64,000 bases of DNA from a virus, in the IMG/VR virus record IMGVR_UViG_3300031576_000037, positions 2,959-66,958 of that record, one strand, 5' to 3'. The translations under genes and the position numbers were made by a program. A model generated the notes under the pieces. That model did not search any database, was not told where the DNA came from, and saw only the letters and a list, made by a program, of their open reading frames with translations. This document shows positions 15,173-44,569 of this stretch, one piece after another; position 1 is the first letter of the stretch; each line of letters opens with the position of its first letter.

Positions 15173-15175
15173 TGG

Positions 15176-16777
15176 CTATTGCTGCACCTTAAGACCGTCG
15201 TTCTCAAATGCTTTTTGCGCATCAGCAAAGCTCAGGTTATATCGGTCGGCATACTTTTGCACGGTTGCGCGCGACACAGGGCGTCCGCCGCCTTGTGGGG
15301 CGGCACGCTGTGGCACTGGCTGTCCGCCGCTCGACCCTTGCGCTTGCGGAATCCCCTTGACGTAATTCCAGCCCGAGCCAGCCGGGTCTTCGCCGGTCTC
15401 GAAATATCTTCCATGTGTCTGGCCGAGGGCCTTGGCGGCTGAATTGTATTGAGTCTGCGCGCGCTGCGCAGCGATCTTTAACTGCTCGTTATCGTATGCG
15501 TTTTGCGCATCAGTCTTATCTGGGTTCTTCTGGAAGCCGCGCCACGCCGCCCACGCGCCGTCGGCGTTGGCCTTCAGCTCCGTTACGCGATTGGCTGCGG
15601 TCGCGGCCTGTGCGGGGATGCCTTTCTCGGCGGCTTCCTTCGGATCGAACTTCACGTCCCAGCTCTTTGTCACCGGATTCCAAATGCCTTCACGAGTGCT
15701 GATCGCCCCCGGCGGTTTTGTTTCGGCAAACCTCGGCGCCCCCTTAAGCGGCTGCTTTGTCGCTGGATCGCGCACTAATTCATCCGTTTCACCATCGCGT
15801 AAGAACCCCTCTGCATCTATGTATCTGGTACGTGCTCGCGGCTGCGGCGGCGGCTTCGGACGTCTCCGTTCTTCAGCCCGCGCCTTATACTCGTCGGCTC
15901 GCGCTGCGCGCTCTGCTCTCCTGGCCCGCATTTCATCGGGAAAGTCTTTCCATTCCTCTTCCAGCATCCCCGTCCGCGCCGCCCTTGCCCGCCGTTCCGC
16001 TTCCTCTTGTTCCTGTTGGCTCCGTCGCTGCTGGTCGGCCACCAGGCGCGGCTCCTGCGTTGTGCGAAACAAGTATTCCCGCCCCGTCGTCGGGCTGATC
16101 GTCGTGCCCACGCCGCCAGTCGCCGCGCCGCCCAGGAAGCGCGCCAGCATATTCGGGTCGTTCGGATTGGCGTTGACCGCCTCCGCGCCGCCCGCCAATG
16201 TAGCGAGCAGAATGTCCTTCCAATTGCGCTTCACCCCGGCAAAATTGCCCTGTTCGTCGAGTTTTTGTTTCTCCCGGATGAATTGATCGCGGCGAAAAGC
16301 CATTGGATCGCTGATTGGCTCGCCTCGATAATCACCCAGGGATGGCTCGAGGACTGGGCGCGGCTTGGCCATCTCCGGCATCACCCGGTCGAAGTCTTCC
16401 ATTGCCAGCCGCGAGGTCGCAGTCAGGTCAGGCGCTTCGCGCGGAGGAATCGGCTCAGGCAGGCGTTCAGGCGTGAACAGCAATGGCGTCGGACGGGCCG
16501 GAGCCGGCAGCGCAGTGGTCTCAGATGGGATAGGAAAAGGCACATCAGGAATGATGCCGCGCATAGCTGGGCGAGTCGGGTACGGCGTCGCTATCTCCGG
16601 CTCTGGCACTGGCACTGGCAGCGAACGGGTAGGGGGGATTGGGCCGCGATCAGATTCAGGTGTAATGAATGGGACAATGCCGCGCCGTTTCGCAACCGGA
16701 TTGACATCCCGCGCGGGCGCAGCTATGCCCTGATCAGCCAGACGCTTTCTTGCTGCTCGAATTAACGCACCAAACAT
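15176..16777 (-). CDS. Putative DNA ejection/internal virion protein
   Basis: Directly upstream of the giant protein; Pro-rich, Gly/Ala hydrophobic segment, coiled coil. Confidence 0.55.
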   Translation of the reverse strand: MFGALIRAARKRLADQGIAAPARDVNPVAKRRGIVPFITPESDRGPIPPTRSLPVPVPEPEIATPYPTRPAMRGIIPDVPFPIPSETTALPAPARPTPLLFTPERLPEPIPPREAPDLTATSRLAMEDFDRVMPEMAKPRPVLEPSLGDYRGEPISDPMAFRRDQFIREKQKLDEQGNFAGVKRNWKDILLATLAGGAEAVNANPNDPNMLARFLGGAATGGVGTTISPTTGREYLFRTTQEPRLVADQQRRSQQEQEEAERRARAARTGMLEEEWKDFPDEMRARRAERAARADEYKARAEERRRPKPPPQPRARTRYIDAEGFLRDGETDELVRDPATKQPLKGAPRFAETKPPGAISTREGIWNPVTKSWDVKFDPKEAAEKGIPAQAATAANRVTELKANADGAWAAWRGFQKNPDKTDAQNAYDNEQLKIAAQRAQTQYNSAAKALGQTHGRYFETGEDPAGSGWNYVKGIPQAQGSSGGQPVPQRAAPQGGGRPVSRATVQKYADRYNLSFADAQKAFENDGLKVQQ

Positions 16778-16787: not shown

Positions 16788-17255
16788 CTAGGGTTTTGCG
16801 GGCGGCGTGGCCTGCGGAGAGGCAGGCTTTTTGACCAGTTGAATCGGCTCAGTATCGAGCGGCGCGGCGTTCCTGAATTCGTATTTGTCCAGGTCTTCGG
16901 CTTTCACCCCATGCTTGGCCAGCGATTTCACCAAAGCCGCATTCAGGGCATTCTGCTCGCCTTTGGCCTGCTCTTCGAGCTTGGCCGCCTGCTCGCGCAG
17001 CGACCTGAGGTCATTCGCCAGCGTCAGCAGCCGCAATTGAATCAGCCGGAGTTTGTCGGTCTCTTCAGCGGTCAGCCTGACTTGTTCAGGCAAGGCAGCT
17101 TCGGGCTTGGCGGGTGCGGCTTTTTCAGTTGTGGGTTTGCCATTTTGCGGCGCTGGTTCCTGCGCCAGCACGATGGTGATAATGAATAGCCAGAAGCCCA
17201 ATACACCGAGTATCAGGCCAAGCTTAAGGAAGGAGAATTGGTTGTTAGTTTGCAT
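16788..17255 (-). CDS. Signal-peptide/membrane-anchored coiled-coil protein
   Basis: Hydrophobic N-terminus ending VLA-QE, then a coiled coil. Confidence 0.6.
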   Translation of the reverse strand: MQTNNQFSFLKLGLILGVLGFWLFIITIVLAQEPAPQNGKPTTEKAAPAKPEAALPEQVRLTAEETDKLRLIQLRLLTLANDLRSLREQAAKLEEQAKGEQNALNAALVKSLAKHGVKAEDLDKYEFRNAAPLDTEPIQLVKKPASPQATPPAKP

Positions 17256-17268
17256 TGATTGTCCCAGG

Positions 17269-18147
17269 TTACTTATTAATCACGAAGAACCCGACACTGG
17301 TCTCTGCCGCACATCCAGCAGTCAGGCTCACAGTGAAGCTACCCGAGGCTGGCACTACACTCTGAATCTGGCAGGTAGCATCATTGGTGCGTTTTACCGC
17401 AAAGACGATGGAGTTGGTTGTTACCAGTGAATTGGTCACTACCAATGATGAGGCGGCTGCGGCGAAGTTTATCGTGCCTGAAGGTTTGTTAATGGTTTGC
17501 GCCCCGGTCGTGCCGGAGGCGGTATTAGTCGCAGGCCACACCGGGAGAGCGTTTCCGGTGATGCGAAACGATTCCTGCGTCGCGGCACTATTGACGGTGT
17601 TGAAAACGATGTCGCTGGTGCGCGTGGCATCTGTCGCATTTGTCCAGACTGCATCCATCGCCGCCGCATCTCGATTGGCCGTCGTTGAACTTTCCAATCT
17701 AAACTGAAGCCGCGAGCCAAAACCCGCCGCTGGTGTTCCGGTCGAAGAGTGCTGCACGTCGAGCAGGATGTCGGCGGCGGCGGTTGTGGCGTTGTCAATT
17801 GAAATAGCAGGAGCCGAGACCGTGAATATGTGCGCCCCCGTCCACGTCGGCGCAATCGCCTGACTAAGCGCCGGAGCGCCATCCGAGCGCAGGAAGGTCG
17901 TGGCCGAGCCGTTGACGGCAGCAAGGCCAATGGTTGCAGTAGGGTTTGCGCCGCTGCCGCCGCCGGTTACGATTGTTGCGACTCGGCCATTTATCGTGAG
18001 TGTGCCATTACTGACCTCGATGGTAGTGATGCCATTCCGGCTGGGACTGCCGTCAATCTCTTTGGCGCGGAGCGGCGGCGTAGACTGAGCCAGCACCACG
18101 GAGTTCGCGGCGCACAAAAGAATCAGAATAATCAGTGCTTTTTGCAT
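17269..18147 (-). CDS. Tail-fibre-like protein with signal peptide
   Basis: MQKALIILILLCAANSVVLA-Q; shares KE(I/L)DGSP..VSNGTLT and RSD(G/A)APA..PTWTG modules with the 3187-aa protein. Confidence 0.65.
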   Translation of the reverse strand: MQKALIILILLCAANSVVLAQSTPPLRAKEIDGSPSRNGITTIEVSNGTLTINGRVATIVTGGGSGANPTATIGLAAVNGSATTFLRSDGAPALSQAIAPTWTGAHIFTVSAPAISIDNATTAAADILLDVQHSSTGTPAAGFGSRLQFRLESSTTANRDAAAMDAVWTNATDATRTSDIVFNTVNSAATQESFRITGNALPVWPATNTASGTTGAQTINKPSGTINFAAAASSLVVTNSLVTTNSIVFAVKRTNDATCQIQSVVPASGSFTVSLTAGCAAETSVGFFVINK

Positions 18148-18172
18148 TGGTGATCCTGGTTGGTTAAGGAAA

Positions 18173-18949
18173 TCAGAACCCTGTCACAGGCGAGAAGAAA
18201 TCGCCAGTGGTTGGCGCTCCTGCCGCTGCTATCGCCGGAAACCGCATCGCTCGCGGCTTGACAAACGCATAGGGATCGGCGTGCAGCCACTGCGCCTCTA
18301 ACAGGAGCAAAGGGCGGTTATAAAGGTAAATGTACTCACTGTCGTGCCAGGCCCGAAAACCAGTGGTGTTACTGGCCCGGAGAACTATTGCGCTCGCCGC
18401 GTCATCAGCCAGTGTGCCAGTGGCGTTGAAGTCCTCGACCCGGGTGGGGACTGCGCCATTAACATATAACTGGTATTCACTCCCGGCAATTCCACCATGA
18501 TGGGCAGCAACAATGGAATACCAGGTGTTGATGGCAGGCGTAAACCCGACCCGGTTGTAGCCGGTGGTGTAATTACGGCGGAAGTAGAGCGTATCAGGCG
18601 CGCCATTGACGATATGCACCCCGGCGAGCTTGATGAACAGGATACTCTGGTCAGTCAATCCCCCGGCATACCTCACCCTCATGGCATGGGACAGGCGAGG
18701 CATGGTGTTTACATCGGCGTGGGCCGGGATAGTCACCACCCCACCCGACAAGGCGAACCCGCCTGGCGATGCTACCCGGCTGACGGTCTGACTGAAGGCC
18801 AGCGCATAGCGACCGGTTAAATCAGCCCACTGATTGCCCCCGGGAGGGGTTACGAAAGCGTAGAGCAGTCCCTGCGCGAGGGGATGTCCCCAGTTGATTG
18901 CATCCCCGGGCTGTGCTTCCAGTTGTGAGCGTCGCTTGTTTCCAATCAT
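18173..18949 (-). CDS. LamG/concanavalin A-like virion protein
   Basis: INWGHPLAQGL, NTWYSIVAA..LYVNG, YLYNRPL; ATGA overlap with the upstream gene. Confidence 0.65.
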   Translation of the reverse strand: MIGNKRRSQLEAQPGDAINWGHPLAQGLLYAFVTPPGGNQWADLTGRYALAFSQTVSRVASPGGFALSGGVVTIPAHADVNTMPRLSHAMRVRYAGGLTDQSILFIKLAGVHIVNGAPDTLYFRRNYTTGYNRVGFTPAINTWYSIVAAHHGGIAGSEYQLYVNGAVPTRVEDFNATGTLADDAASAIVLRASNTTGFRAWHDSEYIYLYNRPLLLLEAQWLHADPYAFVKPRAMRFPAIAAAGAPTTGDFFSPVTGF

Positions 18950-19428
18950 ACCGATTGACTTAGCACTCCTTGGTATATCTTGGCATGGTTGGCCTCGGTC
19001 GCGTCGAGCGCCCCGCCTGTGCGGTTCTCGATGATCAGGCCCCACTTCTCGGGCAGCGTGCCGCCAAAGGCTGCTGCTACGGAGAACGGACCGCCGAGGT
19101 AAGTAACCGCAACCGCTACCGCGTTGACGATACCGACCAGTCTTGCGTTGGTAGGCACGGTCAGGGTGATGGCGGCATCAGTCGCGCCCGCGTTCTCAGT
19201 ACGGGTCGTACCTCCGTCTACTGTGGCGTAGGCGTAGATATAGACCGCGCCGCTGGCAGTCACGCCGCTCGCGCCGGTCTTCACTTTGAGGAAGACCAGG
19301 GCGTCGAGGAACAGGTTCGTGGCGTTGTCAACCTCAGTCGCCTGCCTCGCCGCGTTGTTAGCGAGCGATGCTAACGTACAAGTGATCGCCTGGTTGCTGG
19401 TTCCGAATTTTTCTTTGATGTCAGCCAT
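18946..19428 (-). CDS. Putative virion structural protein
   Basis: TLASLAN..EVDN, beta-rich; AAGGA RBS. Confidence 0.6.
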   Translation of the reverse strand: MADIKEKFGTSNQAITCTLASLANNAARQATEVDNATNLFLDALVFLKVKTGASGVTASGAVYIYAYATVDGGTTRTENAGATDAAITLTVPTNARLVGIVNAVAVAVTYLGGPFSVAAAFGGTLPEKWGLIIENRTGGALDATEANHAKIYQGVLSQSV

Positions 19429-19504
19429 AGTGTGTTATCCTTAGCGAGCAATGAAAGATGAGAGCGATGACGACGCCTGTGCGCTCGGATTGGCGACCAC
19501 CAAC

Positions 19505-22500
19505 CTAATATCCCTTCGCCAGTCCAGTCCCGCGCCAGCGTTGCTTGTTGCCTAATCGCGCCTGGCGGCGCCCCTTAGCGCGCCGGATTCTGTCTCCGAT
19601 GAAAAACAGTAGTAACAGCCAGGTCCAATCAAGACCAAATCCCTTTATAAATCCCACCACTCGCCACCTATTTGCGCTACTGCTGTAAATACCAGTCATG
19701 TAGTCACACTTTAAAGCGGTGATTGTAAGCGTTATCCCGGTTATGTCCGTTCCAAAGATAAATCCTCCTGCGCCGCTCGCCAACGTAATCGTTCTGCCCC
19801 CAGTCGGATCCTGGCAGAACTCCCACACCGCCTGCTGGTCGGCCACCGGGCCGATAGGGGCATCGAGCGTTCGGTTGCCGGCCAACGTTGCCTTGAACCT
19901 GTTGCCCAGGCTGGCGTCCGTGGCGATGTTCGCAGCGTCAGTCAGCGTAACCGGAGTCGAGGAGGTCGCCTTGTTGAATAGGATCGGCCCGTCGAACTGC
20001 GACTTCCCGGCCTTAACCCAGAACGCCAGCGGGGTGGTCAACGTCATATTCGCTCCCGCTGCTGGCGCGTTGACGATGGTGAAGCTGCTCGCGGTTGTGA
20101 TCGTCTCGGCGGCAGTCGCTGAGTACGTCACGCGGGGCACGCTGATCTCGCTCTGCTCGGTGAATGCGCCACCACCGGAAGTGAATTGCCTGGTCGCGGT
20201 CGCGCCGAGGACGATCCCCTGCGCTTCAGTGTCGGCGGCCAGGGCAGTGTCAGCCGGAGTAGTGATCTTGAAATGGAACGGCGAGCCGGAGGAACGGGCG
20301 GCAGGCGATATAGTGGTCGCGCCGAATGCCTCTGTCACCACCACATTCGTCGTCCCGCGCTGCACTCGCAGCAAATCGGCGGTCGCGGCGGAATTGCCGC
20401 TCACCAACAAGGGAACGTGACCGGCGGCGCTGGCCAGTGCGCGGATCGCGTAGCTGTTCGTGATAGTAGCGTTCGTTCCGGCGGCAGGCGATGAGACATC
20501 GAGCGTAATAGCATCGGTCAGGGTGCTGGCGGCGACGAAGCTGTAGGTCGCGCCCTGAATTCGCATCCCCCGCTGCAACGTCAGCGCGCCAGTCGCGTGC
20601 TGCACGTCACGAGCGAGATTGATGTTCACGTCAACCGCTTCCGCTGAGGCGGTCAGGCCAGTGTGAGCCGGAGCGGTCAGCGTCCAGACCGTCGGAGTGC
20701 CAGAGGCAGCGGCGTCGCTGTTGAAAGTGGCGTAGCCGGGCGAGGTGAGCGACAGCCGCGAAGTCGTATTCGTCATGATGTCGAGCGTGTGAGCGGTCTG
20801 ACCGCCTAATAGCAATGACGACCCGTCGCTGGTGAAAATGCCCTGGATCACGCTGCTGTTGGAGTCAACCCGAATGCCATTATTGCTGGCGTCGGCCCGG
20901 ACATGGAGCATCGCCGCCGAGTCGGTGTTGACGCCGATCCCCCCGGTTCCCTTCGGGTTGATTCTGATATTCTCATTCGCCCCGCTGGAAAGCGCCGTCA
21001 ACGTTACTCCACTGCCAGCCGCATTTCCCGTTACGCTCAAACCCGTCGCCGCGCTGCCTACATTGGCGACGACCCTGAAAGCCGGATTCGTGTTTCCATT
21101 CGGCCCCACAGCCAAGGCAGCGGCTGCGGCGCTGCTGACGGTCTGTGCGGCGGTAAACGTTTGGGCGAGATTGGTTCCGGCCAGCGTATAGTCGGCATCC
21201 TGCGGCGTCAGGACTCTAATGGTAGCCGTCGTCAGCCCGTCCACCTCGAAGCGGATTTCCTTTGTGCCATCAGTTGAACCTTCAACCAACGACACAGTAT
21301 CCGTGAACGGCGGCGATGTCCCGCAGCCGGCGCAGGATGTAACGGTCAGCGCCCCCGCCTTGTCCACCTTGAACTTGCTCACCCCGCCGACCTGCAAGTC
21401 CATCAACAATGAAGCGGCGGCGCTCGCCGTGTCAGTGATATTGGTCTTGATAGCGGTGAACGTTACGCCCGCGCTGTTCCACGTCTGCGTGGCGTCAAAC
21501 AGGCGGGTATCCGCCGTCACCGTGCCGCCGGTGACAAACAATTTGTGCGTCGCGTCAGCCGCCCCGCCAATCCCCAGCCGCGCAAACTGCGGCGTCGAGG
21601 CGGTCGCTATATCCTGGGGAGTCGAGAGCGTAATTGACCCCGCTCCATTGGTGACGGTGATTTGATTCGCTGTGCCGGTCAATGCCGCGAGGGTATAACC
21701 GGAGCCATTGCCGATAAGTAATTGACCGTTCGTTGGCGTTCCGGTCAGACCCGTGCCGCCACTGCCTATCGGCAGCGCGCTTCCCAGGGTGAGCAGCCCT
21801 GCTGAATCAAGTGTCAGCTTCGCCGCGCCGCCATAGCTGGCTTTGATCAGGTTGGTGGTGACGCCGGTCGTCGCAGTGTTCGTGGTATCTACCGCTAAGA
21901 CGTTCAGGGTAGTGGTGGTGTTCGAGACGCCAGTATTGAGTGTGGGCTTGATGAGGACACCGCTGAACGTCCTCGTGTTAGTGTCGTTCTTAGTGAGAGA
22001 GAACGTCGCGTCCATCGCCCCGACGGTGTTGTCAGCGTCAGTCAAGATCGTCTTGCCGGTCAACTCCACGCCGGCTGCCGGTGCAGCCTCACCTAATCCC
22101 AGGGCGGCGAATTGTGGCGTCGCGGCGGTGTGGATACTCTGCGGCAGGCTCAGCGTCGGGTTGCCCGCGACACCATCGCCGTTCGACACGTTGACCTGGT
22201 TAGCCGTACCGGTGATTGTCCGCGCTGCGCCTGTTCCCGCGCCGGTTCTCGCCCACAAGCCGTTAGTCGCGTTGTCACCGAGCGCCGTCAGGTCACTGTC
22301 AAGGCGAGCGTTCGCTACTACGCCGGTCGTGATACTCGAACCATTGAGCGCAGTCAGGGATGCGCCGCTTCCGCTGAAGAGTTGCGCCGTCACGGTTCCG
22401 GAGTCGGTGACGGTCAGCCGGTCAGCGAAAGCAGTGGCGTCAATCCGGCCCTGGAGCGTCCAGGTAGATGCTCCGGCATTGGTAGTGACATCAACGAAGG

Positions 22501-25500
22501 TCTTCCAATCTGCGCTATGACCCGCAGTATCGAATGAAGTCCCGGTAAGGATCAGATTGTGAGAGTCGCGGGTTCCCGCCGCGCCTGGCTGGGCAATCGT
22601 AATGGTATAAGCATCTGCCGGTGTAGTCCCGACGTTATGGGTATGAGCGCCAGTCCAGGCGAAGGCAGTAGCCTGATTGACGGAGAGGGTGCGATCTGCG
22701 CTGAGATCGCCGCCACCGATTATGCCGGTTCCATTGGAGATGGTTCGGCCTGTACCCAGAACAGTTCCGCCTCCGCTCGGAGCCGTCCAAGCGGCGTCAG
22801 TGGCATTGCTGCCCAGGTAGGTATTGGCGGCCCCAATCGCCAGGCGCTGCCAGGTCGGAGTCGCGCTCTGACCGGTAATCAGGTCGCCACGCACCACGGT
22901 CGCTGCGGTAGAGTCGGTATGGGTGGCGGACAGGATATTATGGCTCGTTCCTCCACACCCGATACATGAGGTAACGGTGATGTTGCCGGCCTTATCGGCC
23001 TTGAACTTGCTAACCCCTCCTACCTGCAAATCAATCAATAATGAAGCGGCAGCAGAGGCAGTATCAGTGATGTTCGTCTTGAGGGCGGTGAAGGTGACTC
23101 CGGCGCTGTTCCACGTCTGAGTCGCGTCGTACAGATGAGTATCCGCTGTGACTGTACCGCCTGTAACGAATAGCTTGTGGGCAGCATCTGCCGCGCCCCC
23201 AACGCCGAGGCGGGCGAACTGCGGCGCGCTGGCTGTGGCGATGTCCTGCGGCGTCGAGAGGACGGGATTTCCGGCTACCCCGTCGCCATTCGAGACATTC
23301 ACCTGATTAGCCGTGCCAGTGATAGTCCTGGCTGCGCCCGTCCCAGCTCCCGTCCGCGCCCACAAGCCGTTGGTAGCATTGTCGCCAAGCGCGGTTAAGT
23401 CGCTATCCAGCCGCGCATTGGCTACTGTCCCGGTCGTTAGGTTTGAGGCATTAAGGGCCGTCAGGGCCGAACCATCCCCGCTGAAGCTTGTGGCGGTCAC
23501 GGCCCCCCCAGAGGAGACCAGGAATTGTTGCACTCCCCCATAAGCCAACCTGATGAGGTTGGTGGTTAGCCCGGTAACAGCCGTGTTCGTAGTGTCCACG
23601 CTGACGATATTCAGCGTGGTGGTAGTGTTCGATGCACCGGTGTTCAGCGTGGGCTTGATGAATACTCCGGCGAATGTCCGCGTGTTGGTGTTGTCTTTGG
23701 TGAGGGAGAAAGCAACATCCGCTCCGCCAACTGTATTGTCGGCGTCCGTGCTGATTGTCTTGCCGGTGAGTTCCAGCCCGGCGGCGGGCGCAGCTTCTCC
23801 CAGCCCCAACGCCGCAAACTGCGGAGTGGCAGCGGTGTGGATGTTTTGCGGGGTTGAGAGCGTAACGTTGCCGTTCGCCCCGCCATCGGTAATGATAACC
23901 TGGTTCGCCGTGCCAGTCAGCACCCGCTCGGCTGAGAGCGTGGCATCCAGCCCCAGCACAACGTAAGAAGCCCCGGTCGGCGCTCCCCCGCCCGCGCCGA
24001 TGCAATCCACCGTCGCTCCATTCTCCCGGCATTTGAATTTATTGGCGGTTGAGTCGTACCAAACGTCGCCATTCAGGAGCGATGTGGGAGCGCCCGCCTG
24101 TGCGCCGATGTTCAGCCCGGCATTCGTGGCGTTCGGATTGAAGGTCTGCCGCGCCCCGTCTGCAAAGTCCAGCGCACCAGTGTCATTGATTGCCAATCGC
24201 TCAGTGAAGGCTCCGGCGTCGAGGTTCGACATGATCCGCCACTTCGATCCCCCAGCGTTAGTTAGAGCCTGAGCATAGTGCAGCCAGATAGCCGAATGTC
24301 CGACGGTATCGAACGAGGTCGCCTTGACCCTGAACGTATGGCTATCCCGCACCCCGGCGACTCCGGGTTGGGCGATGTCGAGCAGGATGGCGTCGCCGGG
24401 CGTTGTGCCGGGATTGAAAGTGTGTAAGCCGGTCCAAGTCGGCAACAGGCTCTGAAGAATGGCGGGCGCGGCATCCGAACGCATCGCTGTTGTTGCCGAA
24501 CCAGTGATGGCCGTAGTTGTAACGTTGGCCGAAGGCCCAGCGAAACCGCTGAATCCCCCCGGGAGATCAGCAGCTTGAATCGCCGAAGAGACGAAATTAG
24601 TCCCATCCCCGCGAAGGTAATTCCCACTGGCAGCCAGACTGTTCACCTGGAAACCGGTAGTCGCGTTGGCTACACCGCCGGAAGTTACGATGAATTGCAC
24701 CACGCCTCCGTAGCGGAGGTGAAGAAGATTCGTCGTTACCCCGGTGGTCACGGTATTGGCAGTATCGACTGCGAGGACATTGAGCGTGGTATTGGCGTTG
24801 CTGGCCCCGGCGTTGATTGTAGGCTTGATGAACTCGCCGAAGTAGGTTCGGGTGAGGGCATCGTTCTTGGTTAAGCTGAATAGCGTGCTGAGACCGGCGA
24901 TGCTGTTGTTGGCTTCAGTGTCAATGGTTTTACCAAGCAGGTCTATTCCGGCTTCGGCGGGCGCGGTAGTCCCTGCTCCCAGGCGTCCGACCTGGAAAGC
25001 AGCCGAAGTGTGCAGGTCTTGCGGCGCGCCGACCGTGATGTTCCCATTCGCCCCGCCGTCAGTCAGTATGATCTGATTCGCCGTGCCGGTCAGGACTCTC
25101 TCAGCGGTCAATCCAGCGTCGAGCGCCAGCGTTACGTATTGCGCGCCGGTCGGCGCGCCGCCGCCCGCACCCGACAGGTCGCGCCACGCCCCGTTCAGGT
25201 AAGCCCACGCCTTGTACTGTCCATTAATGGTATCGGATTCCAGGACAAAGGCATTTGCGCTGTCATAAGTCGTGGGCACGCCTGTCGGGGTGTCGCTCGT
25301 GCGCGGCAGATAGACAAAACCATCTGTCGCAGTGGTCGCCAGCGCATCTTTGGCGAAAACCGAATTGAGCTTGCCGCCCGACGGGGCGAACCGCGCCTCA
25401 GTCGAGCCGACCAGGTTCAGCCGCAGCAAATCGCCGGTCGCCGAAGTCGTGTGATCTATGACCTGGCCGATGTGGGCGGCGTTGTTCGGCTTGATTCGCA

Positions 25501-28500
25501 GGCCGACCGAGCGGGTCAGCGTGGCGTTCGTTCCGGCGGTGGGAGTCTCAATCTCGACGTTGATTGCGTCAGTCACGGTGGACGCCGCGACGAAGCCGAG
25601 CGTCCGGCCCCGGAAGCGCACGTCGCGGTTGAGCGTGATCGCGCCGGTCGCGTACTGTTTTGTGCCCGATAAATCGAAGAGCAGGTCGGTGTCTTCCGCG
25701 CCCGCCGCCAGGGTAGTGTGGGCGCCGCCCGTGACAGTGAGGGCGACCGGAGAGCCGGAGGCCGCTGCTGCCTGGGTCAGCGTAATCGCCGAGGTCGAAG
25801 GCTGCGCCAGGATCGAATCGCCGGTGGCCGTAGCCGAGGTGAATTTGGGGATTTGATTCGTCGTGCCGGAGCCGGAGATGCTGCCGAAATTCGTATAAGC
25901 GCCGCTATTGGCCGAGAATTGCCACGCCTGCGTCGAGGCGTTGTAGGTAATCCGGCCCCGATTGGCCGGGGCGACGGCGGCAGATTGCCCGGCGGCCTGC
26001 TCGACGTAGGCGTCGCTGGCTGCGCCGATCAGGGTCAGGCTGGTCGGATCAATCGCCCCACCGACAGTCAGCTTGCCGGTCACGTTGGCGTTGCCGGTGA
26101 TCGTCACCGTCGAGCCGGACTCGCTCACCAGCGAATCGCCGATGGCCGTTGCGCTGGTGAACTTGGGCAGCTTGCCCGCCGTGCCGGAGCCGGTGATGCC
26201 GCTGGCGGAAGTCGCCATATTCGAGACCACACGCCAATCTCCCGCGCCGCTCTCGTTCGGAACCAGGATCACGGCCTGCCCGGTGACGTTCAGCACAAAC
26301 GTCGAGCCGTTGACCGTGCCGCCGCTACCTGCCGCCAGAGTAATATTGTTGGTTCCGGCTGCTGCAATGTCCTTGATGATCAACTGCTCGCCGACCCGGT
26401 AAAGCCCCGGCCAGGGCAGCGTAATCGTGCAGGGCGCGGCGCAACTCGATTCGACGTAGCGCAGTCCCGTCCGGGCATAAGTCGAAGTGGACGTGACGGT
26501 GACGCGGGCGAAGCCGCCATCCGAGCGTCCGAGCGGCGTGACCCGCGTGTTGGTCGTGTCGTAATAAGTAGTGACGCGCGCCGCCGAGCCGCCAGTCAGC
26601 ACGCGCGGGCCCAGTCCCTCAGCTACCAGCGGCGGCTGGTCGTTCGAGTGGATAGCTGAGGCGTTCGCGTAAGAGGATTCAGGCCCGTCGAAGATGCTCG
26701 TCTCATCTATCGTGCCGCGCGAGAAATAGGCCGGGAATGAAGCCGAATCCACGTCGTAATCCGCCACCCGCTTGCCCGAGGTAGCTCCTCCTGACGGATA
26801 GAATGTGCAGCCCGTGCAGGAGAAATTCGAGTTGCGATAGGCTTGAATTCCGGTCAGCGTCCAGTTCTCGACGTTGCACTGGTAGCAATACACCGCAGCG
26901 GCCTGATCGGTCGTATCGCCGTCTACGCCGTTCTTTTTACCTATCGCCATCCAGCGGGTATTGGCCACCGAGCCGTCAATCCCGTTGCAGCTCTCGCAGT
27001 AGACATCGCCGCCCTTGACCCGGTAGCCCGCGAGCAGCGTGCCGCCCGCCGCGTGCACATAGATGTCGCGCAGGTAAATGCCGGGATGGTCGTTGGCGTC
27101 AATCAGGATCGGGTAATTGACGTTCCCGCTGAAATCCATCTTCTCGAAGGCCGATGAGAAGGCTTTGGTAATATAGAGGCCATAGCTGCCGGTGTCGGTA
27201 ATAGACACGTCAGAGACGAAGAAGCCGGAGTAATCAGCCGTGCCTTGCAGCGACAATCCAATCTGACTCGCGCCGGTCGCATTGCCGTCAATCGTCAAGC
27301 GCCGAATCGAGGAATCGGAAGCTGTCGCGGTGACGCCGATAATGCTGGCATTCGACGTGGACGTGATGATCGTCTTGGCCCGCCCATCGCCCACCAGATG
27401 GGTGTTGCCCGCCATCGTCAGGCCCGTCACCAGGTACGTGCCCGCCGAGACATAACATTCCTTGCCGCCTGCCGCGGCCGCCGCTGTGATGCAATTTTGA
27501 ATTGCCGTCGTGTCGTTCGTTGTCCCATTACCCACCGCGCCGTAATCCAGTCGGGCGTTGAGCGCCTGCCGGATGTTCGAGGTCGGGAAAGCCGTGTTCC
27601 AGGAAAGCGTGCCGGCGCCGTCGTTGGTCAATGCGCCCGAAGCATTCGAGGCCGGCCAGGTGTAATTCAAGCTGCGGATCGAGGCGCTACCATCGCTGCG
27701 CACGCGGAAGAGCGCCGAGCCGGTCGAATCCGTCGCCCGCAGGAAATCGCCGGTCTGCGAGGCGATTCCCTTGAGCGTCAACATATTGGTATTGACCGCG
27801 CGGGTTGCTGAACCCGACAGGATAATCTGGTCGGTATCTATCCGCAGGCGCGAGAGAGCCTGCGTGGTAAAAATGTGGATATTGTCTTGGAAGACGTACT
27901 CAGGATTGCCGGGGTCGGTGGCTATGTCACGGAAGAGGTCAGTGGCGGTCGCCAGGGTATTCGAGGCCGAGAACAGCGCGAGATAATTGGTGCTGCCGGA
28001 ACCGGTGAGCTTGTTGTTGAAGGTCGTCCAGTCGGCGGATGAGAGCGCGCCCCGGACAGTCGCGGACGCGGTCGGGAAATTGAAGGTGTGGGTCGTGCCG
28101 GACGATGAGATATTGAAGTCGGAACCGCTCGTGCCCGGCGCGAAGGTCTGAGTTGCGCCGGTCAAGCCATTGAGCGAGGTAATCCCGCCGCCCCCGCCGC
28201 CTCCGCCCGTTACGATGGTGACGACGCCGCTGCCGTTGTCGGTCAGGGTGCCGTTGCTGACCTGCAAGGTATTGACGCCCGTGATCAGCGGCGAACCGTC
28301 CAGCTCCTTGATGACGCTGAGGTATTTTACATCAGACTGCGAGCGAGTGTAGGCGTTGACGTCCTGGGCGATGACCGCCGTCGAGTTGTACGCGCACAGA
28401 TCAGGCCAGTTGGTCGCCGATGGAATGGCGGGCACAGCAAAGGAAGAAAAGCAGTCGTAGAACGAGATGCGCGAGCCGCTGTCCCGATAGAACGCGGCGA

Positions 28501-29068
28501 TATATCGCGCCTGCTGATTGGTCGGGCTGTCAACCGTCGCGTCCAGCGCAAGCTGGGGGATGAAAAGCGTCTCAATGCCCGACACGTTCAGGATGGACGC
28601 GGCGACTCGCCGATACCACGCGCCCGAATCCGGCGCGCCGGTCTGCACGATGCAGGTCGTGGTCGAGCCGGAGCAGACGCCGAGCGGACGGAACGGCCCG
28701 GCGGCGGGATCAACGTACAACCTCAGCTCCACCCACTTGCGCCAGATGGCTGTCACGCTTGCGCTGGTTGCGCCCGTGTAAACGCCGGTCAGCGTGGCGC
28801 TTGACACGCTGGTAACATAGGCGACGGTGTAATTTATCCCGTTCAGCGTGATGGTAAAGCCGCCCTTGCCTACCCAATTCGAGCGAAAGGCCGCCGCGCT
28901 CGTGATCGTCGCACTGTTGTTCGTGGCCGAGACCGTCAGCGTGACATCATTGCCGATGTTCTGCGCGCTGAAATTCGGGATTTGCGACGCGGAGATCGTG
29001 ACTTCGGTGGCCGATGCTCTAACCGTCAAAGCGCAGAGTAGCGCACAAAGAAGGAATAGCTTTTTCAT
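19505..29068 (-). CDS. Giant tail fibre/adhesin (3187 aa) with pectate-lyase-like beta-helix and internal repeats
   Basis: LDYGAVGNGTTNDTTAIQ tailspike motif; T/A/G-rich repeated modules; start at MKKLFLLCALL. Confidence 0.8.
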   Translation of the reverse strand: MKKLFLLCALLCALTVRASATEVTISASQIPNFSAQNIGNDVTLTVSATNNSATITSAAAFRSNWVGKGGFTITLNGINYTVAYVTSVSSATLTGVYTGATSASVTAIWRKWVELRLYVDPAAGPFRPLGVCSGSTTTCIVQTGAPDSGAWYRRVAASILNVSGIETLFIPQLALDATVDSPTNQQARYIAAFYRDSGSRISFYDCFSSFAVPAIPSATNWPDLCAYNSTAVIAQDVNAYTRSQSDVKYLSVIKELDGSPLITGVNTLQVSNGTLTDNGSGVVTIVTGGGGGGGGITSLNGLTGATQTFAPGTSGSDFNISSSGTTHTFNFPTASATVRGALSSADWTTFNNKLTGSGSTNYLALFSASNTLATATDLFRDIATDPGNPEYVFQDNIHIFTTQALSRLRIDTDQIILSGSATRAVNTNMLTLKGIASQTGDFLRATDSTGSALFRVRSDGSASIRSLNYTWPASNASGALTNDGAGTLSWNTAFPTSNIRQALNARLDYGAVGNGTTNDTTAIQNCITAAAAAGGKECYVSAGTYLVTGLTMAGNTHLVGDGRAKTIITSTSNASIIGVTATASDSSIRRLTIDGNATGASQIGLSLQGTADYSGFFVSDVSITDTGSYGLYITKAFSSAFEKMDFSGNVNYPILIDANDHPGIYLRDIYVHAAGGTLLAGYRVKGGDVYCESCNGIDGSVANTRWMAIGKKNGVDGDTTDQAAAVYCYQCNVENWTLTGIQAYRNSNFSCTGCTFYPSGGATSGKRVADYDVDSASFPAYFSRGTIDETSIFDGPESSYANASAIHSNDQPPLVAEGLGPRVLTGGSAARVTTYYDTTNTRVTPLGRSDGGFARVTVTSTSTYARTGLRYVESSCAAPCTITLPWPGLYRVGEQLIIKDIAAAGTNNITLAAGSGGTVNGSTFVLNVTGQAVILVPNESGAGDWRVVSNMATSASGITGSGTAGKLPKFTSATAIGDSLVSESGSTVTITGNANVTGKLTVGGAIDPTSLTLIGAASDAYVEQAAGQSAAVAPANRGRITYNASTQAWQFSANSGAYTNFGSISGSGTTNQIPKFTSATATGDSILAQPSTSAITLTQAAAASGSPVALTVTGGAHTTLAAGAEDTDLLFDLSGTKQYATGAITLNRDVRFRGRTLGFVAASTVTDAINVEIETPTAGTNATLTRSVGLRIKPNNAAHIGQVIDHTTSATGDLLRLNLVGSTEARFAPSGGKLNSVFAKDALATTATDGFVYLPRTSDTPTGVPTTYDSANAFVLESDTINGQYKAWAYLNGAWRDLSGAGGGAPTGAQYVTLALDAGLTAERVLTGTANQIILTDGGANGNITVGAPQDLHTSAAFQVGRLGAGTTAPAEAGIDLLGKTIDTEANNSIAGLSTLFSLTKNDALTRTYFGEFIKPTINAGASNANTTLNVLAVDTANTVTTGVTTNLLHLRYGGVVQFIVTSGGVANATTGFQVNSLAASGNYLRGDGTNFVSSAIQAADLPGGFSGFAGPSANVTTTAITGSATTAMRSDAAPAILQSLLPTWTGLHTFNPGTTPGDAILLDIAQPGVAGVRDSHTFRVKATSFDTVGHSAIWLHYAQALTNAGGSKWRIMSNLDAGAFTERLAINDTGALDFADGARQTFNPNATNAGLNIGAQAGAPTSLLNGDVWYDSTANKFKCRENGATVDCIGAGGGAPTGASYVVLGLDATLSAERVLTGTANQVIITDGGANGNVTLSTPQNIHTAATPQFAALGLGEAAPAAGLELTGKTISTDADNTVGGADVAFSLTKDNTNTRTFAGVFIKPTLNTGASNTTTTLNIVSVDTTNTAVTGLTTNLIRLAYGGVQQFLVSSGGAVTATSFSGDGSALTALNASNLTTGTVANARLDSDLTALGDNATNGLWARTGAGTGAARTITGTANQVNVSNGDGVAGNPVLSTPQDIATASAPQFARLGVGGAADAAHKLFVTGGTVTADTHLYDATQTWNSAGVTFTALKTNITDTASAAASLLIDLQVGGVSKFKADKAGNITVTSCIGCGGTSHNILSATHTDSTAATVVRGDLITGQSATPTWQRLAIGAANTYLGSNATDAAWTAPSGGGTVLGTGRTISNGTGIIGGGDLSADRTLSVNQATAFAWTGAHTHNVGTTPADAYTITIAQPGAAGTRDSHNLILTGTSFDTAGHSADWKTFVDVTTNAGASTWTLQGRIDATAFADRLTVTDSGTVTAQLFSGSGASLTALNGSSITTGVVANARLDSDLTALGDNATNGLWARTGAGTGAARTITGTANQVNVSNGDGVAGNPTLSLPQSIHTAATPQFAALGLGEAAPAAGVELTGKTILTDADNTVGAMDATFSLTKNDTNTRTFSGVLIKPTLNTGVSNTTTTLNVLAVDTTNTATTGVTTNLIKASYGGAAKLTLDSAGLLTLGSALPIGSGGTGLTGTPTNGQLLIGNGSGYTLAALTGTANQITVTNGAGSITLSTPQDIATASTPQFARLGIGGAADATHKLFVTGGTVTADTRLFDATQTWNSAGVTFTAIKTNITDTASAAASLLMDLQVGGVSKFKVDKAGALTVTSCAGCGTSPPFTDTVSLVEGSTDGTKEIRFEVDGLTTATIRVLTPQDADYTLAGTNLAQTFTAAQTVSSAAAAALAVGPNGNTNPAFRVVANVGSAATGLSVTGNAAGSGVTLTALSSGANENIRINPKGTGGIGVNTDSAAMLHVRADASNNGIRVDSNSSVIQGIFTSDGSSLLLGGQTAHTLDIMTNTTSRLSLTSPGYATFNSDAAASGTPTVWTLTAPAHTGLTASAEAVDVNINLARDVQHATGALTLQRGMRIQGATYSFVAASTLTDAITLDVSSPAAGTNATITNSYAIRALASAAGHVPLLVSGNSAATADLLRVQRGTTNVVVTEAFGATTISPAARSSGSPFHFKITTPADTALAADTEAQGIVLGATATRQFTSGGGAFTEQSEISVPRVTYSATAAETITTASSFTIVNAPAAGANMTLTTPLAFWVKAGKSQFDGPILFNKATSSTPVTLTDAANIATDASLGNRFKATLAGNRTLDAPIGPVADQQAVWEFCQDPTGGRTITLASGAGGFIFGTDITGITLTITALKCDYMTGIYSSSANRWRVVGFIKGFGLDWTWLLLLFFIGDRIRRAKGRRQARLGNKQRWRGTGLAKGY
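22157..23425 (-). repeat. Intragenic repeat: identical 54-aa block at 22157..22318 and 23264..23425
   Basis: VANARLDSDLTALGDNATNGLWARTGAGTGAARTITGTANQVNVSNGDGVAGNP occurs twice with heavy synonymous change. Confidence 0.9.
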
Positions 29069-29093
29069 TGAATCAACAAGTACGCAGGGAAAC

Positions 29094-29411
29094 TTAGGCT
29101 GCGATTTCCTCCGGGAATACCAGCCTCGCCGCATCTATGGAGAGCAACGTCGGTTCAGGCACGCGCGCCAGATTGATGCTGGCGACCTGCACGAGCAAAG
29201 CTGGCAGTTGCTGTTGCCCATTGACACCGGCATTCAATGGAGTCGTCTGAAACGCCACCCCGGATTCCCAATAGCCTTCCGTAATGCCCTGCTCACGCAA
29301 AAGCAGTTCGGTGATCTCGGTCAGGCTAAATGAGTAGCGGTTGATCTCAGGCACGATCAGCGTTTCCCTTTCCGCCACTCGCTCGGCGAAATCGGCTTTT
29401 CCGATACCCAC
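29094..29411 (-). CDS. Hypothetical protein
   Basis: Fills the operon gap; the start may lie further downstream. Confidence 0.55.
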   Translation of the reverse strand: MGIGKADFAERVAERETLIVPEINRYSFSLTEITELLLREQGITEGYWESGVAFQTTPLNAGVNGQQQLPALLVQVASINLARVPEPTLLSIDAARLVFPEEIAA

Positions 29412-30061
29412 AGCCCCAGTTTCCTCAGCTTCGCATTTCCCTGCGCTTGCGCATAGTCGGCTTTCTCATTAGCCGTGAGCGTGCGTCCGTACTGCGGATA
29501 GTTCCAGGCCCAGCCGCTGGCCGCCTGCTGCAACCCCACATCCAGCCGCTTGCCTGATGCGTCATCCAGAAAAACCCGCACGGTGTGACGCCGCCAGATT
29601 GAATCATAGCCGCGCAACTCAATCGTCACGTGCTTGCCCAGCACCAGCGTCCGCAGCGCATCGCGGGATTCGATAGCGTAGGGCTGATGGCCGCGAATTT
29701 CCGGGGCGTCTATCCCGACGATTCTCAGATTGCGGCGTCCAAAAGTGCGGCCAACCTTGATCTGGCATCCTATATTGTCGCCATCATAAACACTGTTCAC
29801 CGTGCAGGTGACGGTCTTGAATTTGGCTTGCGCCCAGCCGGTCCCGGCGCAGAACAGCCATAGACAGAAAGTCAGCAGCGCGATCTGCCCGGGCTTCACC
29901 CAATCGGCGAGCCTGGAATCACCGCCTGCCTCATCAACCACTTCCGGCATATACGCCTCTTCCGGTATATCGAATGCGGCGATCATGGCTGCCCGGTCGC
30001 CCTGCTTCAGCCCGCATTCAGGCAGGTCTTCAAGCAGCGTCACTGTATCGGGTTCTTGCAT
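29357..30061 (-). CDS. Thermonuclease (SNase-like) with N-terminal DUF4926-like segment and internal signal-like peptide
   Basis: VYDGDN..LRIVGIDAPE..GWAWNY..AKLRKLGLW..P.EWRK; N-terminal DTVTLLEDLPECGLKQGD. Confidence 0.8.
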   Translation of the reverse strand: MQEPDTVTLLEDLPECGLKQGDRAAMIAAFDIPEEAYMPEVVDEAGGDSRLADWVKPGQIALLTFCLWLFCAGTGWAQAKFKTVTCTVNSVYDGDNIGCQIKVGRTFGRRNLRIVGIDAPEIRGHQPYAIESRDALRTLVLGKHVTIELRGYDSIWRRHTVRVFLDDASGKRLDVGLQQAASGWAWNYPQYGRTLTANEKADYAQAQGNAKLRKLGLWVSEKPISPSEWRKGKR

Positions 30062-30068
30062 AATTCCC

Positions 30069-30500
30069 TCATCGAGTTAGTTGCTGCAATGTCACCGTCA
30101 CGGTTCCGCCGGTGACGTTCGTCGTTACCCGCGCCCGCGCGAAGCGGAACGGGCCGGGGAACGTGCCGGACTGCATGCTGTTCGCCCCCGGCGCGGCGGT
30201 GAAGTTCAGCCGGTCAATCTCCGCCCACGTGCCAGCATAAGCGGACGTGTCAGCGACCTCGATCACTACTTCGCCCGCCGTGACGCCGGTTGACCAGATG
30301 ACTGAATAACCCAACTGCGCGGCCTGATTGACCGCCTGCATCGAGCCGGTTCCGGTGGTCGCAGCATTCAGGGATGTGAAGACGCCCCCGCCCTGCTGTG
30401 ATTGAACGGACGGCGCAAGATGGTCGAGCGAGTGAATCGCCAGCGCGAGCAGGAGCGCGCAGCCGGCGGCTTGCCAGAAACGTAATTTATTGGTGTTCAT
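30069..30500 (-). CDS. Putative virion protein with signal peptide
   Basis: Hydrophobic N-terminus followed by a beta-sandwich-like body (FRFARARVTT..GGTVTV). Confidence 0.6.
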   Translation of the reverse strand: MNTNKLRFWQAAGCALLLALAIHSLDHLAPSVQSQQGGGVFTSLNAATTGTGSMQAVNQAAQLGYSVIWSTGVTAGEVVIEVADTSAYAGTWAEIDRLNFTAAPGANSMQSGTFPGPFRFARARVTTNVTGGTVTVTLQQLTR

Positions 30501-31290
30501 GATTGTCACCCTCAAGATTAACGAATCGTTGGCGCCAGTTCGCGCGGCGCTCTTCGAGGTTTAGCAGGTCGCCCAGCCCATAGACCCAATCGTTGATCTT
30601 CGGGCACATCACCCGTCGGCCAGCGCCGGGCTGCAAGCACTTCGTGCAGAGCGGCCAGTAGTCGGCGTTGGCGCCCATATCCCGACCGAAATACCGGGCG
30701 ACGTTTTGCGGGACACCGAGCAGGCTGCTGGCTTCCCACACGTCATCTTCCGTCCAATCTTTCAGCGGATAGACGAAGCGAACGCCGTGGCGCTCGACGG
30801 CGAAATCAGCCAGCGGGATTGGCCCGTGAAGCGGGTCAACATCGTCGCTCCGATGGCCGATGAACAGGCAATCGAAATAGCGGCTGGCTGTCTGGCGCGG
30901 CGCAGTCAGCTTTTCAATTGCGCAGAGAGCGTTGACGTCCGGTTCGTACCCCGGCTCGGCTTCCAGCGGAAAATAGATCACGACGTTGGGAGCCAACTGA
31001 TATACCTCAATTAACTCAACCTGGTCGCCTTTCGCCACCACGTCACGGAAGCCTGGTTGCACGTCCACCAGGTTGAATTTCCAGTCCGCAATGAGCGCAT
31101 CGGCAAAGGCGTGCTTGGTCGGATGGTCGAATCCGCGAAAGTAGGCGACGGGAACGTCTGGTTGAACGCCCAGTGTCAAACGTAACAACACCTGAGAATC
31201 CCGGCCTCCGCTCCACAGGACGAGCGGCGCACGAGCAGACCGCAGCGCTGCAGTAATCAATTGTTGCGCGTCATTAAGTCTCTGCGTCAT
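30487..31290 (-). CDS. PAPS-reductase-family (PP-loop) protein
   Basis: VLWSGGRDS, IGHRSDD, YPLKDWTEDDVW, C-terminal CTKC..CPK. Confidence 0.8.
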   Translation of the reverse strand: MTQRLNDAQQLITAALRSARAPLVLWSGGRDSQVLLRLTLGVQPDVPVAYFRGFDHPTKHAFADALIADWKFNLVDVQPGFRDVVAKGDQVELIEVYQLAPNVVIYFPLEAEPGYEPDVNALCAIEKLTAPRQTASRYFDCLFIGHRSDDVDPLHGPIPLADFAVERHGVRFVYPLKDWTEDDVWEASSLLGVPQNVARYFGRDMGANADYWPLCTKCLQPGAGRRVMCPKINDWVYGLGDLLNLEERRANWRQRFVNLEGDNHEHQ

Positions 31291-39717: not shown

Positions 39718-39752
39718 AATGATTGCTCCTTATAAATGCGGAATCAGTCGGG

Positions 39753-39785
39753 AAATAAAGCCGGGCGTTGCGAGCAACGCCCGGT
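39753..39785 (-). terminator. Stem-loop/terminator between scaffold and capsid genes
   Basis: CCGGGCGTTGC-TC-GCAACGCCCGG followed by CTTTATTT on the minus strand. Confidence 0.6.
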
Positions 39786-39818
39786 GAAAGAAAAAGGAGA
39801 GTGATGAAGAAATAAGTC

Positions 39819-41210: not shown

Positions 41211-41230
41211 GTGTTGTCCCTGAAAAATAG

Positions 41231-41298: not shown

Positions 41299-41315
41299 TG
41301 GATTGCAGCGAGCGA

Positions 41316-41793: not shown

Positions 41794-41794
41794 A

Positions 41795-44224: not shown

Positions 44225-44227
44225 TGC

Positions 44228-44566: not shown

Positions 44567-44569
44567 TGA

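Follow-up and report, generated by a model that had tools for sequence, protein, structure and literature searches.

Leader-bearing genes of the tail region

The stretch of DNA analysed here (the window, 64,000 nucleotides) comprises bases 2959 to 66958 of one virus record, IMGVR_UViG_3300031576_000037, which totals 66,958 bp. From its genes the record appears to be a soil-type, podovirus-like, tailed, temperate phage. Its late operon includes a block of fibre-type genes, several of which begin with leaders of the kind used for Sec export and cleavage by signal peptidase I. These leaders, and the route of fibre assembly that they suggest, are the subject of this report. Positions are those of the window unless stated otherwise.

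Leaders were called with a home-made rule rather than with SignalP. The rule specifies a positively charged n-region, a 9-residue core with a mean hydropathy of at least 2.0, small residues at positions -1 and -3, and a non-hydrophobic start of the mature protein. It flagged 5 of the 70 open reading frames (ORFs) of the record, and 4 of these 5 lie within 16788 to 30515. A sequence-only reading of this DNA had singled out four tail-block genes with signal-like N termini. All four are on the minus strand, the strand of all late genes, and their products have the n-, h-, and c-region layout and the small -3 and -1 residues of type I signal peptides under the rule.

The largest of the four encodes a tail fibre of 3187 amino acids (aa) (19505 to 29068), in which a leader at residues 1 to 20 (29009 to 29068) is followed by an N-terminal domain (N-domain) at approximately residues 21 to 250 and by a long shaft of repeated modules. 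The fibre ORF (19505 to 29134) is 3209 aa long; the leader-bearing Met at 29068, which lies 25 nucleotides (nt) past the stop of the upstream gene and begins MKKLF...RASA/TEV (the slash marks the predicted cut), gives 3187 aa. Five closely spaced CxxC pairs had been reported in this protein, and all five were located, at residues 713, 750, 773, 2057, and 2601 of the 3209-aa ORF. Of the 22 Cys residues in the mature fibre, most are closely paired.

A 292-aa fibre-like protein (p292; 17269 to 18147) has a leader ending SVVLA/QS, with the predicted cut after residue 20 and Gln at +1. Neither the fibre nor p292 had a Pfam or PHROG match. The C-terminal approximately 90 residues of p292 (17272 to 17541) form a widespread fibre-tip domain with at least 135 relatives on viral contigs, at 40 to 77% identity. 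Leaders are carried by 9 of the 66 complete ORFs homologous to this domain, and most of the others begin with classic fibre N termini. The domain ends fibres of many architectures and is matched by no Pfam or PHROG model, making it an unnamed but very common domain. The possibility that p292 is cargo of a type IX secretion system was rejected, because no Pfam family of the Por_Secre_tail type was found at an E value of ≤0.01 and because the C-terminal domain ends most leaderless phage fibres.

A further leader-bearing gene of the block encodes a 155-aa protein (p155; 16788 to 17255). A 20-residue hydrophobic stretch ending IVLA/QE is followed by a Pro/Lys/Ala linker, then by a coiled coil, and finally by a Pro-rich tail. 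At 20 residues the h-region is a borderline membrane anchor. Homologues in three related genomes, designated G001 (125 aa), G420 (146 aa), and G419 (132 aa), have clear leaders of the cleavable type; a search of 5.8 billion proteins returned p155 itself and no further homologue. These features suggest that p155 is an exported or membrane-anchored envelope protein, encoded by the last gene ahead of the putative ejection-protein genes.

At the other end of the block, a 148-aa ORF spans 30069 to 30515. Translation very probably begins at the ATG at 30500, which has the ribosome-binding site GAGGGTGA 5 nt on its 5' side and gives a beta-rich protein of 143 aa (p148; 30069 to 30500). The leader-like N terminus of p148 is present in this phage only, and a search of viral contigs found no relative of the protein. 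No in-frame ATG, GTG, or TTG lies beyond its hydrophobic segment. Both sequence-level conditions for refutation put forward with the sequence-only reading failed, and alternative starts downstream of the hydrophobic segments were found neither for p148 nor for the fibre family. The adjoining gene encodes a protein with DUF4926 and staphylococcal-nuclease-like (SNase) domains (29357 to 30061; PF16277 and PF00565). The internal signal-like segment that had been noticed in it is present, joins the two domains, and is preceded by an in-frame GTG at 29899, from which translation would produce a canonical N-terminal leader ending WAQA/KF. The SNase protein may therefore be either a membrane-anchored periplasmic nuclease or, if begun at that GTG, a secreted one.

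A conserved family of leader-bearing fibre domains

The first 280 fibre residues were compared by phmmer with 1.84 billion representative sequences. The resulting family comprises 214 clusters, 68 of them at an E value of ≤1e-30, with proteins of 96 to 2767 aa, and its alignments start with the first residue of query and match alike. Among the 150 of the 214 matches that were listed, 114 pass the leader rule, mostly with leaders ending A/TD(V/I) and a median cleavage position of 20, which argues that the leaders are more than chance. The remainder consists of 3 probable leaders that the rule missed, 16 fragments or matches to other regions, and 17 leaderless proteins. Leaders are kept down to about 35% identity.

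The leaderless members are informative about the role of the segment. Their Met-Ser-(Asn/Asp)-Ile-Thr start falls exactly at the predicted cleavage site of the other members, and the leader is therefore not part of the fold. A FastTree phylogeny was built from 124 family rows after rows shorter than 200 aa and the 16 fragments were dropped. The pattern suggests that the leader is a separable extension of a conserved domain of approximately 230 residues, one that has been kept for long but also lost (or gained) more than once. This domain is borne by proteins of 250 to 2767 aa with exchangeable distal parts, and a constant N-domain joined to variable distal parts fits the usual architecture of fibres.

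Structure prediction gave an N-domain model with a predicted local distance difference test (pLDDT) score of 78.8, in which a helix at residues 2 to 13 stands apart from the beta domains that follow. Foldseek searches of the PDB found nothing that convincingly matches the domain as a whole (best TM score, 0.18 to 0.26), and BFVD gave weak matches only, to uncharacterised phage proteins. Residues 40 to 111 of the model are similar to small beta-barrels found in the tail and tailspike proteins of phages (VIA-wide; Z score of 7 to 8, a range that the tool calls common), with root-mean-square deviations of 1.9 to 2.6 over 67 to 89 residues; 13 of the 15 top rows are phage particle proteins, mostly of tails or tailspikes. 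The shaft motif (residues 295 to 385 and beyond) recurs in 466 viral stretches, and most of the fibre ORFs concerned begin with ordinary leaderless N termini. A single scan of metagenome contigs yielded 2 short contigs.

Cys density is higher in the leader-bearing members of the family (P = 0.002). Cys parity was considered as a mark of oxidative folding and set aside, as the excess of even over odd counts is weak (57 versus 43; P = 0.10). The suggestion of an unusual export route thus fared unevenly: its basis in the leaders holds, in that these are canonical, conserved, separable, and placed on proteins that are fibres or tailspikes by position and homology, whereas the argument from Cys residues does not carry much weight.

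Relatives and operon context

Genomes related through the large terminase provide a second line of evidence. The closest relative, G001, is syntenic with this record, and its terminase is 68% identical. It has leaders on three syntenic proteins: a 374-aa homologue of the fibre N-domain, a 973-aa pectate-lyase-type protein that matches fibre residues 531 to 860, and the 125-aa homologue of p155. G419 and G420 encode leader-bearing fibres of 2349 and 2560 aa, respectively, with further leader-bearing proteins on either side. No leaderless fibre candidate was recognisable in this record (G000), G001, G419, or G420. In G421, a record that is 60% complete, a leaderless 712-aa member of the fibre family occupies the same site (nozzle-like gene, two small genes, fibre, giant protein); it is the sole fibre candidate there, and its neighbours have no leaders.

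Across the terminase clade, leader-bearing ORFs are clustered in the fibre region in 7 of 12 genomes and not in the other 5. Pooled over the clade, 15 adjacent pairs of leader-bearing genes were counted versus 4.3 expected, and none of 10000 shuffles gave as many. Proteins from the clusters of G411, G412, G410, and G001 have matches to Peptidase_S74 (the endosialidase chaperone domain), to PHROG tail-fibre families, to pectate-lyase folds, and to the C-terminal domain of K1 lyase.

Leaders are also enriched on fibre-like proteins beyond this clade. In two sets of 80 viral loci, 16 of 118 fibre-like ORFs with a complete N terminus had leaders (9 of 66 and 7 of 52, one of them doubtful), versus 86 of 1711 other ORFs of at least 100 aa in the same loci (41 of 900 and 45 of 811), an approximately threefold difference (Fisher P = 0.0006). 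The loci with leader-bearing fibres include P2-type baseplate, tape-measure, and podovirus-like modules, and thus myo-, sipho-, and podo-type phages, at guanine-plus-cytosine (GC) contents of 0.41 to 0.63.

Within the window, the leader-bearing genes belong to the virion gene block. Ten consecutive late genes, 4 of them with leaders, are packed into 16788 to 30515 with intergenic gaps of -55 to 76 nt, and promoter- and terminator-like sites, as judged by Escherichia coli-type consensus only, are not above shuffled sequences. The short gaps and the lack of excess promoter- or terminator-like sites indicate that the fibre block and the virion genes form one operon. The GC content of the block (0.58 to 0.62) is the same as that of the adjoining genes. 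On these grounds, and because the block is syntenic in relatives, the idea that it is a moron was rejected. The leader-bearing proteins are thus regarded as fibre-type from their location in a late structural operon with terminase and portal genes and from homology to fibre or tailspike modules in the shaft, in the C-terminal domain of p292, and in the leader-bearing proteins of relatives. Of the smaller proteins, p155 may be a membrane-anchored lysis or ejection protein rather than a fibre part, and the leader of p148 is not kept in two relatives.

Host and cleavage-site preference

Relatives of the terminase were found in cellular genomes at seven loci, all in Pyrinomonadaceae or Pyrinomonadales assemblies (7 of 7; 33 to 46% identity), one of which is a closed chromosome. 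These prophage relatives, rather than this record itself, point to Acidobacteriota, likely of the family Pyrinomonadaceae, as hosts of the wider clade. The fibre N-domain was not found in the 5 Pyrinomonadaceae genomes searched and gave 2 weak partial matches only in 401 Acidobacteriota genomes.

Among the leaders of the clade, Gln is the commonest residue at +1 (16 of 64 calls), with Gln making up 4.4% of residues overall. The same preference was found in G004, a Pyrinomonadaceae chromosome with a related prophage, of which 400 kb were sampled in 20 stretches: Gln is the commonest +1 residue there (17 of the 65 leaders called), and an admissible site before Gln is present in 29 of the 65. A preference at +1 matters only after cleavage, and it therefore argues for real processing of the leaders. 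Gln at +1 of signal peptidase I substrates is known as the Q-rule in Bacteroidetes (excerpts of PMC5837995 and PMC10653852), and the excerpt of PMC5837995 calls it Bacteroidetes-specific. The clade leaders are alike in having Gln at +1 and unlike in that the likely host family, Pyrinomonadaceae, belongs to the Acidobacteriota. The Q-rule may thus extend to Pyrinomonadaceae.

Proposed assembly route and alternatives

We propose that the fibres of this phage are exported by Sec, cleaved, folded in the periplasm, and joined to particles late, and we put the probability of this route at about 0.52. What is established here is that the leaders exist, that they are conserved, that they sit on fibre-type proteins of a late operon, and that they have a host-like cleavage-site preference. 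Under the proposal, the fibre, p292, and their small neighbours would be made with Sec/signal peptidase I leaders and moved by Sec across the inner membrane. The leader would be cut after ...ASA in the fibre and after ...VLA, before Gln, in two others, and the mature proteins would fold and form trimers under the oxidising conditions of the periplasm. As usual, heads bearing tail stubs would be assembled in the cytoplasm. The conserved domain of approximately 230 residues behind the leader would serve as a docking module, which could reach the tail only when lysis opens the inner membrane or after the cell has burst, and fibre attachment would thereby be shifted to the envelope or the lysate.

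The steps of this route differ in their footing. Export, cleavage, and periplasmic folding would follow well from the logic of the sequences. Late docking of fibres on particles at lysis would follow by analogy, because fibre addition is the final and independent step in podoviruses and because the four genomes named above have no recognisable leaderless fibre candidate. Speculatively, the phage might gain oxidative folding or periplasmic modification of its fibres, shielding of cytoplasmic precursors from receptor-binding or glycan-cutting activity, or cutting of nascent receptor in the envelope. Display on the host surface, which had been offered as another outcome of export, gained no support, and no outer-membrane routing signal was found.

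Several results weigh against the route. The leader rule also flags 4.6 to 5.5% of other phage ORFs. The homologues of p148 in G001 (113 aa) and G420 (117 aa, 31% identity, E value of 7e-8) have no leader. The leaderless state changes at least 7 times on the family tree, and a leader lost or gained that often indicates that export is dispensable for the fold. The bias toward even Cys counts is weak, and the Z scores of the beta-barrel likeness are in a common range. In G411 and G412, a protein with a partial N-domain is leaderless and the next 4 to 6 fibre-like proteins have leaders; at locus L070, a complete leaderless fibre and an assembly protein lie ahead of the leader-bearing genes, which are thus in a moron-like position. 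The terminase matched none of 50,697 deposited phage records, a search made for cultured relatives. No phage-borne signal peptidase, Dsb protein, or chaperone was found among the ORFs scanned in G420 and G412, those of 80 to 1500 aa lying within one sequence piece, a scan that turned up GH19 endolysin-like genes, an integrase, and a repressor. Profile scans with Pfam and PHROG recognised no holin or endolysin among the proteins of this record. With neither set of functions found, the step at which fibres and particles mix is one that we infer.

The main alternative is that the proteins are exported but are not parts of the particle, being instead periplasmic or released accessory proteins derived from fibre and tailspike modules. 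They could possibly act in glycan-cutting receptor destruction, which would block superinfection and the loss of progeny on debris, in release from capsule or biofilm, or in lysogenic conversion. We consider this unlikely for the present phage. In its favour, the leader-bearing proteins include some with pectate-lyase, K1-lyase, or endosialidase-type domains, a secreted SNase may be encoded in the same block, and the anchor-type protein of G411 and G412 has no leader. The gene order at L070 also suits accessory proteins, and does so better than that of this record. Precedents are the leader genes of unknown function in Porphyromonas gingivalis prophages, which the excerpt of PMC10367356 reads as host-envelope modifiers, and lambda Lom, a leader-bearing moron between tail genes (excerpt of PMC12309495). 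However, in G000, G001, G419, and G420 the N-domain occurs only on the leader-bearing protein, with no leaderless protein recognisable as a fibre, and the only candidate fibre of the syntenic G421 has this domain but no leader. The genes are closely spaced within the late operon, show no sign of a promoter or terminator of their own, and match their neighbours in GC content; their counterparts in Cellulophaga phages (see below) are annotated as structural. A further alternative, which appears distinctly improbable, is that the hydrophobic N termini do not serve export during infection: the fibres would be assembled in the cytoplasm with the segment kept, cut by another protease, or bypassed by a second, leaderless start, or the segment would be a temporary membrane tether or membrane-active tip. 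In its favour, 17 of the 150 listed family members function without a leader, the state having switched at least 7 times, a protein of 3187 aa is a heavy load for Sec, the fibre leader contains a TTG codon, and the P22 virion protein gp7 is proteolytically processed to gp7* (excerpt of bioRxiv 10.64898/2026.09.03.749273). Against it, the segments show a full n-, h-, and c-region layout with small -3 and -1 residues and a host-like Gln at +1, and leaders co-occur on adjoining genes; moreover, leaderless members begin at the cleavage site, which places the segment outside the fold, and p148 has no in-frame start after its leader.

For p155 alone, a role as an inner-membrane-anchored, spanin-like lysis protein, or as a small ejection protein in the manner of T7 gp14 before gp15 and gp16, is a tentative reading that falls somewhat short of even odds. 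The stretch of membrane-span length, the linker, the coiled coil, and the Pro-rich tail would suit such a role, as would the position of the gene, which is always the last before the ejection-type genes in G000, G001, G419, and G420. Against it, the leaders of the homologues are shorter, of the cleavable type, and end A/Q, and p155 is absent from the leaderless G421, a record that is 60% complete. A two-component spanin was rejected, because no ORF of at least 25 aa with a lipobox, and hence no embedded or adjacent lipoprotein partner, lies in or beside the gene on its strand; the i-spanin half fits. That the leaders are artefacts of annotation, untranslated because the true starts lie downstream, is very improbable. 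The choice of start is not trivial for the fibre, whose longest ORF begins 22 codons upstream of the leader Met, but the leader is kept in 114 of 150 listed homologues from independent assemblies, a strong ribosome-binding site precedes the ATG of p148, and the gaps to upstream genes are short.

If export and late joining of the fibres are correct, then completion of the particle hinges on host Sec, on signal peptidase (possibly also on Dsb proteins or glutaminyl cyclase), and on the mode of lysis. Periplasmic modifications of the fibres would become possible, and the envelope of an infected cell would hold receptor-binding or receptor-cutting proteins ahead of the burst. Receptor-binding proteins would be missed by annotation pipelines in which any protein with a leader is set aside as "host" or "moron."

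Other genes of the record

The assignment to tailed phages follows from the presence of a portal-like protein of 809 aa and a large terminase, which together span 41795 to 47111 on the minus strand (assigned by clade comparison and PHROG); the terminase itself lies at 45228 to 47111 (phrog_38, E value of 5.3e-18). A tyrosine integrase (4840 to 5811, plus strand; PF00589, E value of 4.2e-27) indicates that the phage is temperate. The late genes run, in order, from the terminase through the portal-like gene, head-region genes, a 186-aa gene, a 677-aa gene, two genes for small proteins, and a PAPS-reductase-like gene to the leader-bearing fibre block, followed by genes for a 533-aa and a 3017-aa protein. 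Between the fibre gene and the p292 gene lie two leaderless genes (18173 to 19428, minus strand), encoding 160 aa (18946 to 19428) and approximately 259 to 290 aa (18173 to 19045); neither product had a Pfam or PHROG match.

The genes immediately upstream of the block, from the 186-aa gene to the PAPS-reductase-like gene, occupy 30487 to 34750 on the minus strand. From size and position alone, the 186-aa protein would be adaptor-like and the 677-aa protein nozzle-like. The latter is conserved across the terminase clade; neither its alignment nor the 186-aa protein had a useful sequence match in the PDB. Downstream of the block, the 533-aa protein and the 3017-aa giant protein, which has an N-terminal lytic transglycosylase domain (PF01464 at residues 27 to 125, E value of 7.9e-18), are encoded at 6119 to 16777 on the minus strand. 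By position and domain, and by comparison with T7 gp15 and gp16, they are probably internal (ejection) virion proteins. G001 encodes a homologue of the giant protein. The order of the genes and their domains would thus resemble the T7-type arrangement, with an adaptor, a nozzle, and proteins ejected from inside the particle. Across the clade, the giant internal proteins range from 1738 to 4829 aa; that of the window (6119 to 15172, minus strand) has its transglycosylase at the extreme N terminus, and that of G420 is encoded at 38643 to 53132.

The PAPS-reductase-like gene (PF01507, phrog_424; 30487 to 31290, minus strand) lies between the nozzle-like and fibre genes, an arrangement shared by several clade members. 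Such a gene was also seen in G420, G409, G413, and G002, and one adjoins the fibre genes of an unrelated myovirus-type locus, L017. In G412, a 202-aa protein with a lipobox-like I-L-A-C in its leader is encoded at 35565 to 36173 (15565 to 16173 of stretch L209). It is a candidate lysis lipoprotein, such as an outer-membrane spanin, and a GH19 endolysin-like gene follows shortly downstream (16924 to 17517 of L209).

The GC content is approximately 0.6 across roughly 6 to 58 kb, and the flanks are lower in GC and carry insertion sequence (IS) fragments and two methylase-nuclease fusion genes. The two fusions, paralogues that join an N6/N4 DNA methylase to an Mrr-type nuclease, flank the phage block in opposite orientation (1508 to 3193, plus strand; 59360 to 61060, minus strand), and beside them lie IS1595- and IS1-like fragments (903 to 1328 and 58631 to 59344) in the lower-GC DNA. 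Host flanks or a composite mobile frame are possible explanations. The early region encodes a formylglycine-generating-enzyme-like (FGE-sulfatase) protein (55293 to 56030, plus strand; PF03781, E value of 1e-45), which PHROGs label "kinase," and a protein with an ArdC-N-like anti-restriction domain is encoded at 51572 to 51991 (plus strand; PF08401, phrog_7245). Tandem 8-residue units (LAEPRATQ/W) form an ORF at the start of the record, upstream of the window (record positions 45 to 380).

Comparison with known systems

Textbook assembly of tailed phages is wholly cytoplasmic. Sec-dependent proteins encoded in or near the tail or lysis modules of tailed phages include lambda Bor, endolysins with signal peptides or signal-arrest-release (SAR) sequences, and spanins. 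None of these, nor lambda Lom, is known to be a homologue of fibres or tailspikes, whereas the leaders described here are on a fibre family within an operon that has no moron signatures. Virion proteins with Sec leaders are familiar from filamentous phages, whose pVIII and pIII, the latter receptor binding, mature at or beyond the inner membrane. Those phages are non-tailed, contain single-stranded DNA, and are extruded without lysis, in contrast to the terminase-packaged tailed phage of this record. A parallel for the proposed docking step is found in T7 gp17 and P22 gp9, which have a conserved N-terminal docking domain and variable distal parts and whose attachment comes last and works on finished particles in vitro. 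Unlike the fibre of the window, they have no leader and fold in the cytoplasm, and the N-domain of the window fibre has no Pfam or PHROG match to their families.

No description of Sec leaders on tailed-phage fibres was found in the literature searched, with most subscription journals outside the coverage of the search, and the excerpt of PMC6199706 uses the absence of a leader as a mark of phage origin for a fibre-like protein. Tail fibres are a known kind of protein; it is their assembly route that is possibly new. The nearest published account concerns phages of P. gingivalis, which are alike in carrying SignalP-predicted Sec/signal peptidase I leaders that expose Gln, read as an adaptation to the host secretion system (excerpt of PMC10367356). 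They are unlike in that the genes are of unknown function and thought to encode envelope modifiers, with no tie to fibres or particle assembly in that excerpt.

Among cultured phages, p292 had three weak, uninformative matches and the fibre of locus L065 had none. A further comparison is with the Cellulophaga phage phi46:3 (KC821622.1), a cultured, short-tailed member of the Pachyviridae of approximately 73 kb. Five of its consecutive genes, gp079 to gp083 (312 to 843 aa), begin with leaders followed by Gln, and four of them are annotated "structural protein" by similarity to phi18:3 gp85 to gp87. Phi46:3 is thus alike in having consecutive late leader-bearing proteins, Gln at +1, and a structural annotation; it is unlike in that its host belongs to another phylum and that no BLASTP match to proteins of the clade was found at an E value of ≤1e-3. 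Taken with the Acidobacteriota-associated podovirus-like clade and with Bacteroidota-type myo-, sipho-, and podoviruses, the Cellulophaga Pachyviridae raise the prospect, which we hold tentatively as nearly an even bet, that several unrelated lineages of tailed phages export a receptor-binding module by Sec, mature it in the periplasm, and add it at lysis. This would be a two-compartment route within the Caudoviricetes, toggled by gain or loss of the leader. The cultured Cellulophaga phages offer a direct test of the route, which also has implications for producing fibres and depolymerases in heterologous hosts.

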